DNA from: a bacterium
GTDB taxonomy: Bacteria > Orphanbacterota > Orphanbacteria > Orphanbacterales > Orphanbacteraceae
Assembly (NCBI GenBank): GCA_025782575.1
Contig: JALGYY010000047.1
Coordinates: forward strand, 14,139 to 78,138
DNA length: 64,000 bases
Direction of reading: 5' to 3'
The notes under the pieces were generated by a model, which did not search any database, was not told the DNA's origin, and saw only the letters and a list, made by a program, of their open reading frames with translations. Of the stretch, positions 1,861-51,849 are shown one piece after another. How positions within the stretch are numbered: the first letter of the stretch is position 1; each line of letters opens with the position of its first letter. A program made the translations under genes and the position numbers.

Positions 1861-4800
1861 CTAATTCTTCGATACGAATACCGTTGTCGTGCGAGCCGGG
1901 ACGCAGATGGTCTCATTCTCCTTGTTGTAGTGGGCACCCCGAACGACCGAATCGTGTGAATCTCGAAGAACGGGGTGGAGTACGAGATCTCGGCCCGGCA
2001 CACGCCCCTCGGCATCGAAGCACTGCTCCTCCCCCGTGGCGTTGAACAGCACCCAGATCTGGCGCCACTGATCGTCAAGCGACGGTAGATTGCCTGCGTT
2101 GTCGGAGATCGACATTACGATCAGGCCGGGAATCTGATCGCGACCGGTGTTGTGGAAGAAGAGTCTCGCGCCCATTTCGTCCGCACTCCGGAGGCGGAAG
2201 AGGGGAGAGCTTTTCCTGATCATCAGCATCTCTCGGAAATGATTCACCGCCCGCAAGATCTGCTCTTTACCCGGCATGTTCTTTTCGTCGGTGAGCTTGG
2301 GCCGGATGACATCCCATCGATCGAAGTTCTTCGCCGCGACCGGGAGACCAACGCCGAAGTTGTTCGATTCATATGTGAAGTCAAGACGGTTGAACCAGTC
2401 CCCGGAATTGTAGCTGTCCGCATCCATGGACTTGGAGCGGAGCATATCCACTCCCGCGTGGAAAAAGGGCACGCCCTGGCCGAGGGCAACGAGACTGACC
2501 GCCATATTCTGCATACGAACGCGATCATCGAGGCCGATCTCGTCAGAAACGGAATAGGCGATCTTGTCCCAGAAGGTCTCGTTGTCATGCGCGGAGATAT
2601 AGTTGATTGACTCGTGGGGCTCACTGGTATAGCCGGCGTAGCTCATGTCGCCACCCTTGATGGGCTGGCCGTTCGATGCGACAAACTTGAAATCCCGCAG
2701 GTTTCCGGTTAGCCCGATACGAATGCGGTCGACCGCTTCCATCGATCCCCGGCTCCCCTTCGACCAGGAGCTTGTCGCAAAACCCTGGTCCCCGCGATCA
2801 CTGAAGGGATTCCCGCCGCGGACGGCATCACGCATCCGGTCGTTGAACGTGCCGATCCCTGTTCCCGCCATTGGTAGCTGGGAAGCGTTAGCGCCACGCG
2901 CACCGCCTGCTACCTCCCCGAAATCCCACCCTTCGCCGTAAAGATAGATCGACGATCCGTCCACGCCGTCATGTTCGGGTGTGAGCGCGTGAAGCGATTC
3001 GGCTGCAGCTACCATGTTCCGTTTCATATGATGACCCATGAGATCGAACCGGAACCCATCTACTTTATAGTCGCGCGCCCAGTGGATGAGATCGTCAATC
3101 ATGAGCCGTTCCATCATGGCATGCTCGGTGGCTGTATTCTGGCAGCATGTGCTCGACTCGACGATGCCGTCGGCGTTCAATCTGTGGTAGTAGCCGGGAA
3201 CGACCCGGTCGAGTACCGACTTTTCACTCAGTCCGCTCGCGTTGGTGTGGTTATAGACGACGTCCATGACGACCCGAAGGCCGAGGTCAGCGAGACTCTG
3301 CACCATGCGCCGGAACTCGTAGATTCGTGCGGTGCCGTCGGGGTCTGTGGAATAGCTCCCCTCGGGAACACCGTAATGAAACGGATCATATCCCCAGTTG
3401 AACCCGTCCTGGCCGGACATGGCACTCACTCGTTTCTGTTGCCACTCCGAGTCCGCCGGGCGGCCCGACAGATCACCCGGCTGGGCCTGCAGGCTACGGT
3501 TTTCTTCTATTGTGGCGATGTCGAATGCCGGCAGCAGGTGAAGGTGACTCAGTCCCGCATCGGCAATTGCCCGAAGGTGGCGTGAACCGTTTGACTCCAC
3601 AGTGAACGCCTCGAACGTGCCGCGAAGCCCTTCCGGTACTTCAGGATCAAACGCGCTGAAGTCGCGGATGTGAAGCTCGTACAGTGTGATGTCGTTCGGC
3701 GCTTCCAGAGCGGGCTTCGCGAGGTCGTTCCAGCCCGGAGGGGCCAGGTCGGGGTCGGCAAGATCGACCACCAGGCTTCTAAGGCTGTTCATCGAAAGGC
3801 CGCGCGAGTAGGGATCGGTCGCCGTGTGATGGGAAATCTCGCCGAGTGAGGGTACATACACCTCCAGGTCGTAGAGGTACTGCATCCCCTTCCAGGAGGC
3901 GTTACCCTTCGCGCTCCAGACGCCATTCGATTCGGTCATCGCGACAGTCTGCTTCGCTTCCGTCTGAGCCGTATTCTCGAAGAGAAGAAGGTCGACCCGC
4001 CGCGCGGTAGGTGCCCAGACACGAATCGTCGGTATGCCGTCATTCCATTCGATGCCGAGAGGTCCATCATACGTAAACAGGTCGTCCAGTACGCCGGGGA
4101 TCTGAATGCCGGTAGCGTCCTGCAGCTGGCCGGATTCATCTGTGATCGAAACGGCGAGTGCCCCTTTCAGTAGTTCGGCTGCCCGGCCCACTGACTTCTG
4201 AGGAATGGAGAAAACCTTGTGCCCGGCAAGATGGGGGAATTTCGCGCGGGTCTCTTTGGAGAGGCCGTTCTCATCGGCAGCCAGTTCGAATGATTCGCCT
4301 CCGGTAATTTCCTCTTTCGTTAACTCGAGACCGCCATCGGGGGCGAAGTGGAGGCGGACGATGTCACCCTCTCCAGGTGAGACCGGCCATGCGATCGAGG
4401 CTGCCGCCACCCAGAACGCGCGCTGTCTGGAGAGATCGCCCAGGTCAAGAGTTCCTAGGTCGGGCACTTCCGTAAATATTGTCGCGCTCCCCGAAGCGAG
4501 CCAGACTTCACACCCATGGTCTCCGATGAGGAGTGTCATGTCCGGACCGGGGTCTTTCTGATCACCCTTGTGAACGATGAATCCGATCTTGGATGCTCCG
4601 TCGTTCAGACGAAAATCCCAGTAAATCCCGTACTCATCTTCGCCGGCCGACTGCCACGGTGATCCCCATTCCACGGACTCCGGCGTATCCTCCCAGAGAT
4701 GAAGTCCCCAGCCGCCGTACTGTCCATCGGGCCGGTGATAGTGAATCCGCGCGTAGCCATCTACCAGCTCAGGCGCCGGTGCCAGGTCCCGCTTTTCGAC

Positions 4801-48137: not shown

Positions 48138-49943
48138 ATGCGTCTCCGTTTGAAGAGTTCAGCTGGACACCTGACGACAATTGCTCTCGGATTTCTGTTC
48201 CTGCTTGCCTGGGGCGGTTCGGCCGCGGCCGGCACCGATGCTTGGCGGGACAAGATCCAGGCGGGCCTCCTGGAAGAGGCTACGACTCTGGAGACCGAGT
48301 TTCTCGTCTTTCTCGGCGAGCAGGCTGATCTTTCGGCGGCGGCCCTGATGGGGACGAAATTAGAGAAAGGTCGCTACGTTTTCGAAACGCTGAGCCGTAC
48401 GGCCGATCTTACACAGGCCTCTCTTCTGAATGTACTCGAGGGGGAAGGGGTGCCACATCGACCCTACTGGGTGGCCAATATGGTCTGGGTCAAAGGGGAC
48501 GCTACGCTCGTAGAACGAATGGCGGAGCGAGCGGATGTGCGGGGCGTTTACGCGAATCCGATCGTCCAGTTTGAACAGCCTGTGGCGATCGAGGCGGGCG
48601 CACCGAAGGTGGCGGGAATCGAATGGAACATCTCCCAGGTGAACGGCCCGAACGTCTGGGCCATGGGGAACACCGGACAGGGGACGGTGGTCGGGGGAAT
48701 CGACACGGGCTATGACTGGGATCACCCGGCCGTTATCGATCAGTATCGTGGTTGGGACGGTGTCTCGGCCGATCATAATTACAATTGGCACGACGCGATT
48801 CACTCGGGGAGCGGCGGGTCGTGCGGGCTTGACTCGGCTGTTCCTTGCGATGACCACGGACATGGTACTCACACGATGGGGACCATGGTGGGAGATGACG
48901 GCGGCAGCAATCAGATCGGCCTCGCTCCGGGCGCGAAGTGGGTCGGTTGCCGTTGCATGGATGTGGGCTTCGGTACGCCTGCGCGCTACACGGAGTGTCT
49001 CGAGTGGATGATCGCCCCCACCGATCTGAACGACATGTTCCCCGACCCGTCGAAAGCACCCGACGTGATCAATAATTCGTGGAGCTGCCCCCCTAGCGAG
49101 GGGTGCACCGATCCACTCGTCATGCAGACAGTGGTTGAGAATGTGAAGGCGGCGGGAATCGTCGTTGTAGTGAGTGCGGGGAATTCGGGATCGGCTTGCA
49201 GCACGGTCGAAGATCCGATCGCTATTTATGAAGCATCGTTTTCAGTCGGTGCGACTGACGACAATGACGACATTGCAGGCTTCAGCAGCCGCGGTCCTGT
49301 CACTTCGGACGGCAGCAATCGTATGAAACCTCAGGTGAGCGCGCCGGGAGTGATCGTCCGTTCCTGCGTTCCGGGTACCGGTTATACCAGCCTGAGCGGG
49401 ACGAGCATGGCAGGGCCACACGTGGCCGCGGCGGCTGCGCTTGTGATCGCCGCGAATCCCGTTCTCCAGGGGCAGGTCGACAATGTCGAAAGCATTCTCG
49501 AGCAGACGGCGCTTGCCCGTACCACTACCCAGACTTGTGGCGGTGTTCCGGGAACGAGCATTCCGAATAACACATACGGCTGGGGGCGGATTGACGCGCT
49601 GGCCGCTGTAAATGAAGCAATCAGCCAGGCGGTTTCGGTGGATGGCGCAAACGCCGTTCCCGCCCGCTATTCTCTCTCCGCAGCCATGCCGAATCCCTTC
49701 AACCCGCGCACTACCATTCGATTCGACATCCCGGAGCGTAGCGATGTTTCGATCCGTGTGTTTGATGTGGTCGGCCGTGAAGTGCGCCCCCTGATCAGCA
49801 GAACGAACCTCGAGGCAGGTCGGCACTCCGTCGATTGGAACGGTCTCGACAGTCGTGGCGACGACGTACCGTCAGGCATCTACTTCTATCGCATGAACGC
49901 CGGCGAATTCCAGTCGACCGGCCGGATGGTTCTGGTTCGGTGA
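48138..49943 (+). CDS. Subtilisin-like serine peptidase (S8) with C-terminal T9SS sorting domain
   Basis: Catalytic triad motifs VVGGIDTGYDWDHPA (D), HGTHTMGTMVG (H), GTSMAGPHVAAAAAL (S). C-terminal ...SGIYFYRMNAGEFQSTGRMVLVR is a T9SS CTD. Confidence 0.85.
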   Translation: MRLRLKSSAGHLTTIALGFLFLLAWGGSAAAGTDAWRDKIQAGLLEEATTLETEFLVFLGEQADLSAAALMGTKLEKGRYVFETLSRTADLTQASLLNVLEGEGVPHRPYWVANMVWVKGDATLVERMAERADVRGVYANPIVQFEQPVAIEAGAPKVAGIEWNISQVNGPNVWAMGNTGQGTVVGGIDTGYDWDHPAVIDQYRGWDGVSADHNYNWHDAIHSGSGGSCGLDSAVPCDDHGHGTHTMGTMVGDDGGSNQIGLAPGAKWVGCRCMDVGFGTPARYTECLEWMIAPTDLNDMFPDPSKAPDVINNSWSCPPSEGCTDPLVMQTVVENVKAAGIVVVVSAGNSGSACSTVEDPIAIYEASFSVGATDDNDDIAGFSSRGPVTSDGSNRMKPQVSAPGVIVRSCVPGTGYTSLSGTSMAGPHVAAAAALVIAANPVLQGQVDNVESILEQTALARTTTQTCGGVPGTSIPNNTYGWGRIDALAAVNEAISQAVSVDGANAVPARYSLSAAMPNPFNPRTTIRFDIPERSDVSIRVFDVVGREVRPLISRTNLEAGRHSVDWNGLDSRGDDVPSGIYFYRMNAGEFQSTGRMVLVR

Positions 49944-50054
49944 TACGGGACGGCCGGCCAAGCCATTCTTCTTATCGAGTCCGGCGCGCTTTCACCACCA
50001 TTGAAAAGCCGCGGCTGTTCCGGTATTCTAAGCCGGTTAGACGAATTGTCACGA

Positions 50055-50205
50055 CTCGGTGGTCAACCGGAAGCCGGTGAGAATCCGGCGCGGCCCCGCC
50101 ACTGTATGCGGTGACGAAACCCGAAACGAACCACTGGAAGCCGCCCGCCGGCGACCGGGAAGGATCGGGGAGTAGGGAGACCCGCAAGCCAGGAGACCGA
50201 CCCCT
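50055..50205 (+). promoter_or_regulatory. Cobalamin (B12) riboswitch
   Basis: cGGUGgucAAccGGAAgccGGUGagAAUCCggcGCgGcCCCGCcACUGU matches the B12-element core (GGUG..AAnGGGAA..GGUGnAAnUCC...GCnGnCCCGCnACUGU, with the B12 box GCCACUG at 50098-50104). The 3' conserved AGCCAGGAGACC is at 50188-50199. It lies 170 nt upstream of ATG 50373, which has an AGGAGG RBS. Confidence 0.6.
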
Positions 50206-50372
50206 GAGTCCGGAAGCCGGAGTGAACGATCGCTTCAGGGCTTCCATTCTTCCCAGCCTTCGTGGGCAAGGACTTGGGGATCGGCCGCCGTGTTTCGATT
50301 TCTACAGAGCGACCGCACCTCTTTTCGTTGCCTCCCGGTTGGGTTTCATAGCCCTGTTCCCAGGAGGTTATC

Positions 50373-51191
50373 ATGCTGAACATTTATTGGCGCCAAGCGT
50401 GTCGGACATTACCGGTGGCGATGGCACTGTCTGTTTCATTACTAGCGGTTTCACAGGCACATGCCGGCTTCCCCGACACGGGCCAGCAGAATCTGGAAGT
50501 CGATCGCTCGGACGGAAGCATTATTGCCTGGGCTTCCGGCGTGGCCGGGTTCGATCGAGGGCCGGTCGACTACCAGAACCCGGGGCTCGGTGATGCGTCG
50601 TTCGGTACGGATACCGACCCTCTCGGATCGTCAGGCACCCCGTTCAGCCTGGGGGACGGCGGATGGATCACGTTCACATTCGACGCGCCCATACTGAACG
50701 GTGCCGGGGCGGACTTCGTCGTGTTCGAAAACGCTTTCGAGTTCGGCGGACTGGTATTCATGGAACTCGGCTTTGTCGAAGTGAGCAGCGACGGTGCCCT
50801 GTTCTCGCGCATGCCGGCGCTCTCCAGAAAAGCAGCCCCCACAGGTCCGTTCGACGGCTCCGATCCTGCCGACTTCTATAACCTGGCTGGAAACTTTGTG
50901 GGTGGGACGGCGTTCGACCTGGAAGATCTGATTACGGCAGGTGATCCGAATGTTGTCGGCGGCCAGGTTGATCTGACAGCAATTACGCATATACGCGTAG
51001 TCGATGGGGTGGGAGACATCGTCGGTCCGGGCGCGACAACCGACTGCCTGAACCGGCCGGTGTCCGACGCCTACCCGACCGCGTTCGCGAGCGGTGGGTT
51101 CGACGCTACCGGGGTGGGCGTGATTCACTCCGTCCCGAGCACGTCTACAGAATCTGTCAGCTGGGGGGATGTGAAGAGCATTTTCCGCTAA
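50373..51191 (+). CDS. Secreted hypothetical protein (putatively B12-riboswitch controlled)
   Basis: AGGAGG RBS. Signal peptide with AHA-G cleavage (VAMALSVSLLAVSQAHA). Gly/Asp-rich beta-type sequence with no recognised domain. Monocistronic; the next gene is convergent. Confidence 0.5.
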   Translation: MLNIYWRQACRTLPVAMALSVSLLAVSQAHAGFPDTGQQNLEVDRSDGSIIAWASGVAGFDRGPVDYQNPGLGDASFGTDTDPLGSSGTPFSLGDGGWITFTFDAPILNGAGADFVVFENAFEFGGLVFMELGFVEVSSDGALFSRMPALSRKAAPTGPFDGSDPADFYNLAGNFVGGTAFDLEDLITAGDPNVVGGQVDLTAITHIRVVDGVGDIVGPGATTDCLNRPVSDAYPTAFASGGFDATGVGVIHSVPSTSTESVSWGDVKSIFR

Positions 51192-51250
51192 GCAGAACGG
51201 AAGGTTCCGGTGAGGGGGCGGCGCGAGCGGCCGTCTCCCTGTCGGACCTG

Positions 51251-51793
51251 CTACAAGTCGGCTTCGAGCAACTCGAACGCACGCTGGGCGCCGCTTGCCA
51301 CCCTGTATAGCTCCTCAGCGTGTTGGGGTGCAAACCGTTCTGCGAAGATGTGGTCGAAATAGCGTAGAAGTGGATCGAAGTACCCGTCGGTATTCAGCAG
51401 CACGACCGGCTTGTCATGAAGTCCGAGCTGGCGAAGAGTAATCTCCTCGACCACCTCCTCGAGCGTGCCGAATCCGCCGGGAAGTGCGAGAAAGGCGTCC
51501 GCCCGTTCTTCCATTATTTTTTTTCGATCCCGGAGATTACTCGTTACGATCAATTCGTCCGCATCGGTGTAAGCGAGTTCCCTGTCGCGCAGCGCTTCGG
51601 GTATAACTCCGACGACCTTCCCGCCGTGCTCGTGGCTCGTACGAGCCAGAACGCCCATGAGACCAACGTTCGCGCCTCCGTAAATAAGCGTGTAGCCCCG
51701 TGATGCCATCACGGCCCCCACCTGGCGTGCGGATTCATAGAATATCCGGCGTGCCGAATCACTCGACGCACAGTAAACGCAGATCGATTTCAT
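51251..51793 (-). CDS. LOG family protein (TIGR00730; cytokinin riboside 5'-monophosphate phosphoribohydrolase-like)
   Basis: MKSICVYCASS N-terminus, GGANVGLMG, and PGGFGTLEE, which are LOG-family signatures. Confidence 0.8.
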   Translation of the reverse strand: MKSICVYCASSDSARRIFYESARQVGAVMASRGYTLIYGGANVGLMGVLARTSHEHGGKVVGVIPEALRDRELAYTDADELIVTSNLRDRKKIMEERADAFLALPGGFGTLEEVVEEITLRQLGLHDKPVVLLNTDGYFDPLLRYFDHIFAERFAPQHAEELYRVASGAQRAFELLEADL

Positions 51794-51849
51794 GTAGAGA
51801 GAGTAAACTCTGGACACGGTCGGCGCAAGTCAGTGGCGCAGAAAACGGT

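Follow-up and report, generated by a model that had tools for sequence, protein, structure and literature searches.

What does a cobalamin riboswitch do in front of a single gene for a small exported protein? The question is raised by a 64-kb stretch of DNA (hereafter the window), in which a first-pass annotation had placed such a riboswitch at 50055-50205, behind a gene for an S8 protease and ahead of a protein said to have no recognisable domain. Our analysis supported that interpretation in part. We consider it probable that the riboswitch is an OFF switch acting on the open reading frame (ORF) at 50373-51191, and that the product is an exported corrinoid catcher of the BtuH superfamily serving a BtuB-type transporter encoded elsewhere.

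The riboswitch and its single target gene

Scanning of the 64-kb window with cmscan returned a match to the cobalamin riboswitch family RF00174 at 50043-50219 on the + strand, with 81.2 bits, far over the gathering score of 31.5 (E value of 2e-18), and no other Rfam family reached threshold anywhere in the window. The covariance alignment spans the full model (positions 1-189 of 189). The annotated element is real, and its true span is slightly wider than first proposed. All of the sequence elements quoted in the first-pass annotation are present, including the core string cGGUGgucAAccGGAAgccGGUGagAAUCCggcGCgGcCCCGCcACUGU at 50056-50105 and the 3' conserved string AGCCAGGAGACC at 50188-50199; the conserved 3' element GCCAGGAGAC at 50188-50198 was identified from both the sequence and the covariance alignment. 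The RF00174 alignment also takes in the P1 helix and, at the periphery, a P6 extension of the kind usual in the adenosylcobalamin-type class, and the aptamer is a class-I-type cobalamin riboswitch whose ligand is probably adenosylcobalamin. As an RNA, it is a conventional representative of a known riboswitch class. The elements of the leader region are as follows.

50001-50029, + strand: promoter-like site TTGAAA-17-TATTCT (9/12 in a consensus scan; a consensus match only)
50043-50219, + strand: cobalamin riboswitch aptamer, including the P6 peripheral extension (cmscan, RF00174)
50092-50100, + strand: C-rich L5 hairpin GGCCCCGCC, preceding the B12 box (sequence reading and Rfam alignment)
50098-50104, + strand: B12 box GCCACUG (sequence reading and Rfam alignment)
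50213-50255, + strand: window-specific GC-rich hairpin with a 14-bp stem that separates P1 from the P13-like hairpin (minimum-free-energy fold)
50257-50271, + strand: candidate P13 hairpin CCUU-CGUGGGC-AAGG (motif shared with close relatives)
50330-50368, + strand: predicted hairpin pairing an anti-Shine-Dalgarno (anti-SD) GCCUCC (50330-50335) with the Shine-Dalgarno (SD) AGGAGG (50362-50367) (minimum-free-energy and centroid folds)

The gap between the end of the S8 protease gene (49943) and the start of the downstream ORF (50373) measures 429 nt, in agreement with the roughly 430 nt given before. The aptamer ends 153 nt ahead of the ATG at 50373 and lies on the same strand as the ORF, which is preceded, as annotated, by AGGAGG 5 nt ahead of the ATG. 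The next gene, a member of the LOG/TIGR00730 family at 51251-51817, is on the opposite strand and convergent. Therefore, the riboswitch can control only the ORF at 50373-51191, and the claim of a single regulated gene holds.

The candidate promoter at 50001-50029 ends 14 nt before the aptamer, which would fit a transcript starting just ahead of 50043. A higher-scoring promoter-like sequence, the best of the intergenic region (GTGACA-16-TAGAAT, 10/12), is on the minus strand at 50052-50025, overlapping the aptamer at its 5' edge and facing the 3' end of the S8 gene. This upstream gene (48138-49943, + strand) encodes an S8 subtilase with a FlgD_ig/Por_Secre_tail-like, that is T9SS-like, C-terminal domain. 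Since the same subtilase gene also precedes the riboswitch unit in locus L082 (3864-5642), the window and L082 are syntenic. A hairpin past the stop codon (about 51202-51249) was considered as a terminator and rejected, as it folds no better than shuffled sequence (z -0.47).

As to the expression platform, the terminator scan found no canonical intrinsic terminator from the aptamer to the start codon, and minimum-free-energy and centroid folds paired the SD with the anti-SD in the hairpin at 50330-50368. For these two reasons, translational repression by SD sequestration is most likely the mechanism, as judged from folding models. The pairing probability of anti-SD and SD was 0.46 in unconstrained folds and 0.83-1.0 with the aptamer enforced or blocked, while a different folding proxy gave another partner for the SD. 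Similar anti-SD/SD hairpins were found in loci L085, L002 and L083. With one constrained-folding proxy, a GGAG within the aptamer (50192-50195) captured the anti-SD when P1 was blocked; we rejected this "pseudo-SD" switch, which was reproduced neither by a second proxy nor in L083, L085 and L002. More generally, thermodynamic modelling of the switch varied with the proxy chosen and was not reproduced in relatives.

Two further hairpins lie between the aptamer and the SD hairpin. The GC-rich hairpin at 50213-50255 was rejected as a regulatory element: its tail AUUCUUCC is too U-poor for the terminator scan, and the hairpin is missing from L082 and L002, in which the aptamer is directly succeeded by the P13-like hairpin. 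Because relatives lack it, it is unlikely to be the switch. As for the P13-like hairpin, the exact motif CCTTCGNGGGNAAGG occurs past the aptamer only in the window, L002, L082 and L085/L086, with a variant in L083, and takes the form CCUU-CG(U/A)GGGC-AAGG across this close subfamily. Its G-rich loop (GGG) is complementary to the C-rich L5 (CCCC), in a set of only about five related sequences that carry the hairpin. It may take part in an L5-L13 kissing loop, a role that we carry over from published structures of cobalamin riboswitches.

The regulated protein and its relation to BtuH

The ORF encodes 272 aa with an N-terminal Sec-type signal, as the first-pass annotation had stated, and divides into the following parts.

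50373-51191, + strand: coding sequence, 272 aa plus stop, of the putatively exported, compact BtuH-like protein
50373-50465, + strand: predicted Sec (SPase I) signal peptide, residues 1-31, with putative cleavage after AHA (sequence reading)
50466-51188, + strand: mature beta-sandwich domain (invariant columns of alignment A1)

The structure model predicts a helix at residues 2-29, and the cleavage motif reads SQAHA followed by GF. Sequence reading found no cysteine in or after the signal, so there is no lipobox. The homologue search returned 565 relatives, most of 256-270 aa and none with a Pfam domain across the region; some bear PEP-CTERM or T9SS sorting tails. In the alignment of homologues (A1), the strongly conserved stretches are SLGDGG, VFEN, ELGFVEVSSDG, NLAGN..GGTxFDL, VRVVDVVGD and PYPTAFASGGFD, and the invariant motifs of the mature domain are SLGDGG, VFEN, E131, VEVSSDG, GTxFDL, VVD and GGFD, together with a C-terminal SW..VK.LFR.

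The window protein carries an SPase-I-type signal and has no lipobox, T9SS tail or PEP-CTERM, which leaves its exposure at the surface uncertain. Its subfamily, with this signal only, could thus supply a periplasmic shuttle or store of corrinoids between an outer-membrane receptor and an inner-membrane transporter rather than a surface scavenger. We regard this as a reasonable but unlikely alternative, given that in other subfamilies the corresponding C-terminal position is taken by a T9SS or PEP-CTERM tail, a sign of a cell-surface destination, and that BtuH proteins are exposed at the surface. The close subfamily ends in a conserved E..SW..VK.L[FY]R, predicted to be a short helix (51150-51188 of the window, residues ~260-272), at the exact place that the PEP-CTERM or T9SS sorting domain takes in other subfamilies. 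This motif could be an unrecognised sorting or anchoring signal, which would also speak against a periplasmic location.

The description of the protein as having no recognisable domain holds for searches of Pfam, NCBIfam, PHROGs and PDB sequences, none of which gave a usable result for the single protein; it breaks down under structure-based and profile-profile comparison. The BtuH domain is known from Bacteroides thetaiotaomicron as BtuH1 (BT1488) and BtuH2 (BT1956, PDB 7BIZ) (Putnam et al. 2022, PMC8941943), and BtuG1 (BT1490) carries an H-domain (PDB 8BLW chain B). Foldseek gave 8blw_B as its top match, and structure comparison revealed the same fold as in 7BIZ and the H-domain of 8BLW. The A1 profile also had its best PDB sequence match in 8blw_B, at residues 372-473 within the H-domain, with an E value of 0.16. 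The position of the BtuH domain in BtuG1/BtuGH is given as N-terminal in a 2026 review and as C-terminal in the primary papers of 2022 and 2023; alignment to residues 372-473 and 623-644 of 8blw_B agrees with a C-terminal H-domain.

For profile-profile comparison, a BtuH1 orthologue was stitched across one frameshift from the Bacteroides contig L081 (ENA contig_5074); P0131 is 99% identical to it. This orthologue collected 1,499 BtuH1 relatives, of which 30 were aligned (A2). Contig L081 holds a B12 locus of the BT1486-1491 type that is full of frameshifts, and its called genes are fragmentary, including the 80-aa P0123; a 102-aa BT1490 fragment used as query returned gene fragments only. hhalign aligned A1 with A2 at 94.8% probability (E value of 5e-8) in local (core) mode and 96.0% (2e-9) in global mode. 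The segments FDLEDL and VDLTAITHIRV aligned with FDLDDA and VKLDRIHFVKV, and the invariant N120, F122 and E131 with N101, F103 and E108 of BtuH1, of which N101 and E108 are invariant in BtuH1. The N-x-F-x4-E spacing of these BtuH1 residues is identical to that of N399, F401 and E406 in BtuH2, so we equate the two sets. In BtuH2, according to the review, these residues belong to the metal/nucleotide-loop site and the corrin-stacking contacts.

The equivalents cover only part of the ligand site. In the metal/nucleotide-loop site (BtuH2 N399, E406, D522, S582 and E584), the equivalents of N399 and E406, N120 and E131, are invariant, and two further invariant acidic residues, D182 and D244, are candidate counterparts of D522 and E584 in a C-terminal region where the alignment is uncertain. 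The corrin contacts of BtuH2 (Q333, F334, Y475, H476, Y510 and W577) are not kept, and F122, the equivalent of F401, is the only one retained. BtuH has a segment of about 100 aa with the YH motif (Y475/H476) and Y510, whereas the window family has about 35 aa there and lacks an insertion of about 70 residues; likewise, PAPGQF (Q333/F334) of BtuH faces RGPvDY in the window family. Because this segment is reduced and PAPGQF is aligned with RGPvDY, the binding pocket is not fully conserved.

Identity between BtuH and the window family is about 20%, and pairwise comparison does not link the two: a pairwise search with the window protein and two Bacteroidales members against 7BIZ and 8BLW gave no match at E <= 10. 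A transitive link to BtuH through Bacteroidales family members was also rejected, as they match T9SS tails only. BtuH homologues were originally defined by BLAST (E <= 0.03 to BT1488, BT1490 or BT1956), and since pairwise searches never connect the two groups, the window family would escape that definition. Furthermore, BtuH proteins are lipoproteins and the A2 relatives have an invariant lipobox C19, whereas the window protein has an SPase-I-type signal. Judged from these sequence and profile comparisons, the protein represents a divergent, compact branch within the BtuH superfamily; because both the BtuH insertion and the lipoprotein signal are missing, it is not a canonical BtuH.

Spread of the family and its linkage to B12

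A profile search of 1.84 billion cluster representatives counted 3,464 representatives of 50%-identity clusters in the family with a threshold of E <= 1e-3, and 1,313 when the threshold was E <= 1e-30; many members are multidomain. The family occurs in Krumholzibacteriia, Fibrobacterota (Fibrobacteraceae), Planctomycetota, Verrucomicrobiota, Myxococcota, Chloroflexota and environmental Bacteroidota. We searched the literature and found neither a description of the family nor anything relevant on BtuH outside Bacteroidota or on the family as "cell surface protein".

When one genome per GTDB species was scanned, at least 504 loci encoded relatives, and the best 80 were taken with flanks of 2.5 kb. 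A co-oriented RF00174 match was found within 2.5 kb upstream in 44 of these 80 species-representative loci, and one further locus had a divergent one. All eight further close relatives also had a co-oriented RF00174 upstream (52/88 loci in total). Homologues do, then, stand behind B12 riboswitches in other genomes, a point that the first-pass annotation had raised.

The closest relatives, of 52-65% identity, show two arrangements. In nine loci (the window, L002, L082, L083, L085, L087, L088, L090 and L091), the gene stands alone with the riboswitch immediately upstream; the riboswitches of these relatives score 83-112 bits, and the flanking genes are unrelated among loci. In the operon form, verified in L092 (riboswitch of 88.9 bits), the riboswitch is followed by a TonB-dependent receptor, a 463-aa protein with a FlgD_ig tail and the homologue, with a PduO-type cobalamin adenosyltransferase nearby. 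L001, L003 and L004 keep the gene order of L092, their upstream end lying beyond the flank limit. The protein between the receptor and the BtuH-like gene has 460-467 aa in these loci (L092, 5565-6956; L001, 1089-2489; L003, 1042-2424; L004, 1101-2504), and since Pfam recognises only its FlgD_ig tail, it is another uncharacterised component of B12 loci.

The typical operon of Bacteroidota runs from the riboswitch through a T9SS-tailed protein with DUF1573 or DUF4430 to the homologue and then to a TonB-dependent receptor or to DUF5074 and BtuF-type genes. Across loci, the neighbours were TonB-dependent receptors, DUF5074 proteins, BtuF-type Peripla_BP_2 proteins, a DUF4430 protein and PduO adenosyltransferase. 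In the Bacteroidales loci L042 (1278-2471) and L010 (1306-2370), the riboswitch is followed first by a gene for a T9SS-tailed protein with DUF4430, which we take to be a transcobalamin-like domain, or with DUF1573, and the BtuH-like gene comes after it. Locus L005 of Aquisphaera insulae contains two cobalamin riboswitches (1019-1208 and 3555-3746); one precedes an ORF with DUF4465 and a PEP-CTERM motif that overlaps the match to the BtuH-like domain, and the other lies just downstream of the DUF4465 ORF, ahead of the next gene.

This genomic linkage to B12 effectively excludes a CBM32/discoidin-like, carbohydrate-binding surface protein whose association with the riboswitch would be incidental, a reading to which we give next to no weight. 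The window protein has neither a Pfam match nor its best structural similarity to CBM32/discoidin (F5/8 type C).

The compact domain is fused to DUF4465, the B12-binding domain of BtuJ, in five independent proteins, and it also occurs within large surface proteins built of several domains, among them PKD, RTX and beta-propeller repeats. Together with the missing insertion that bears Y475, H476 and Y510, these contexts would suit a protein that acts in B12 uptake without binding corrinoid itself, as a scaffold or docking module; it might, for example, tether domains that already bind B12, such as DUF4465, to the envelope, or help to open or load a TonB-dependent receptor. Conversely, nine stand-alone copies with their own riboswitch and no nearby partner gene argue for a self-sufficient activity, and the invariant N120, F122 and E131 match part of the ligand and metal site of BtuH2. 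Fusion to a B12 binder does not imply that the domain is non-binding, since BtuG1 likewise joins two domains that each bind B12. We thus consider a pure scaffold a reasonable but unlikely alternative, and keep corrinoid capture by the domain itself as the preferred reading.

Proposed function and comparison with known systems

According to the preferred reading, the gene at 50373-51191 would be expressed when intracellular cobalamin is low, and its product of about 240 residues after cleavage would leave the cytoplasm through Sec. We infer that this protein binds corrinoids, whether in the periplasm, at the cell surface or in the medium, and it would then hand them over to a TonB-dependent transporter of the BtuB type whose gene lies elsewhere in the genome. 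With cobalamin in ample supply, the ligand-bound aptamer would turn expression off, most likely with the SD locked in the hairpin at 50330-50368. It counts against this reading that no gene for BtuB, BtuF or another B12 function could be detected anywhere in the 64 kb. tblastn with queries from B12 loci found no gene for a TonB-dependent receptor, BtuF-like, DUF5074, DUF4430, DUF4465 or PduO protein there, and matched C-terminal sorting tails only.

A broader and more tentative idea, which we hold as a possibility short of an expectation, is that the compact BtuH-like domain is a widespread, unrecognised corrinoid-binding module, and that its stand-alone copies are soluble "corrinophores" capturing B12 away from the cell. 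The module would then comprise 3,464 clusters in at least seven phyla, with a ligand pocket built unlike that of BtuH2 owing to the absence of the Y475/H476/Y510 insertion. Copies lacking both a lipid anchor and any known sorting tail would be released, and uptake would proceed via a receptor encoded elsewhere.

Several known systems invite comparison. The riboswitch resembles those of E. coli btuB and env8, RF00174 members with an L5-L13 kissing-loop platform, in its full-length aptamer with B12 box and peripheral extension, its downstream hairpin whose loop is complementary to L5 and its SD within a predicted hairpin. In contrast to these, the candidate P13 of the window is separate from the SD, some 90 nt ahead of it, and an extra hairpin specific to the window comes between P1 and P13. 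BtuJ/DUF4465 (PF14717) proteins, which bind B12 at the surface, are likewise exported beta-sandwich (jelly-roll) proteins of B12 riboswitch regulons, and the two domains are fused in several proteins. The window protein does not match Pfam PF14717 at E <= 1, and DUF4465 is present solely as a separate fused domain in some relatives.

The LIC_13355 family of lipoproteins (NF033170) is a further case. With 20.2 bits for the window protein and 14-19 bits for others, the scores fall far short of the 120-bit cut-off, and the protein does not belong to this family. Weak matches to the NF033170 core came from five members of the window family (E values of 3e-4 to 2e-2). LIC_13355 of Leptospira has been studied as an adhesin-like lipoprotein with no recognised domain, in a paper without mention of B12. 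On sequence grounds, the LIC_13355 family may belong to the same BtuH-like superfamily.

The closest comparison remains that with BtuH itself. The accessory proteins that capture B12, BtuG, BtuH, BtuJ and BtuK, have been characterised almost wholly in gut Bacteroides, and BtuH homologues reported so far come from gut Bacteroidota and a few Firmicutes. In contrast to BtuH of gut Bacteroides, the window family is found mainly outside gut Bacteroidota, often as a stand-alone riboswitch-gene unit without a nearby transporter. Our analysis indicates that such reduced relatives of BtuH are frequent in environmental lineages, namely Krumholzibacteriia, Planctomycetota, Verrucomicrobiota, Fibrobacterota, Myxococcota and non-gut Bacteroidota; they are under cobalamin-riboswitch control in 52 of the 88 loci and also occur as a portable unit of a riboswitch and one gene. 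If it does bind corrinoids, several thousand "hypothetical" or "cell surface" proteins would gain a name and a testable function, the BtuH fold would have a minimal scaffold for B12 recognition, and the extracellular relay model of cobamide scavenging would extend well past the gut. Our results indicate no new principle, but they extend the B12-scavenging toolkit, in a concrete and testable way, into many environmental phyla.
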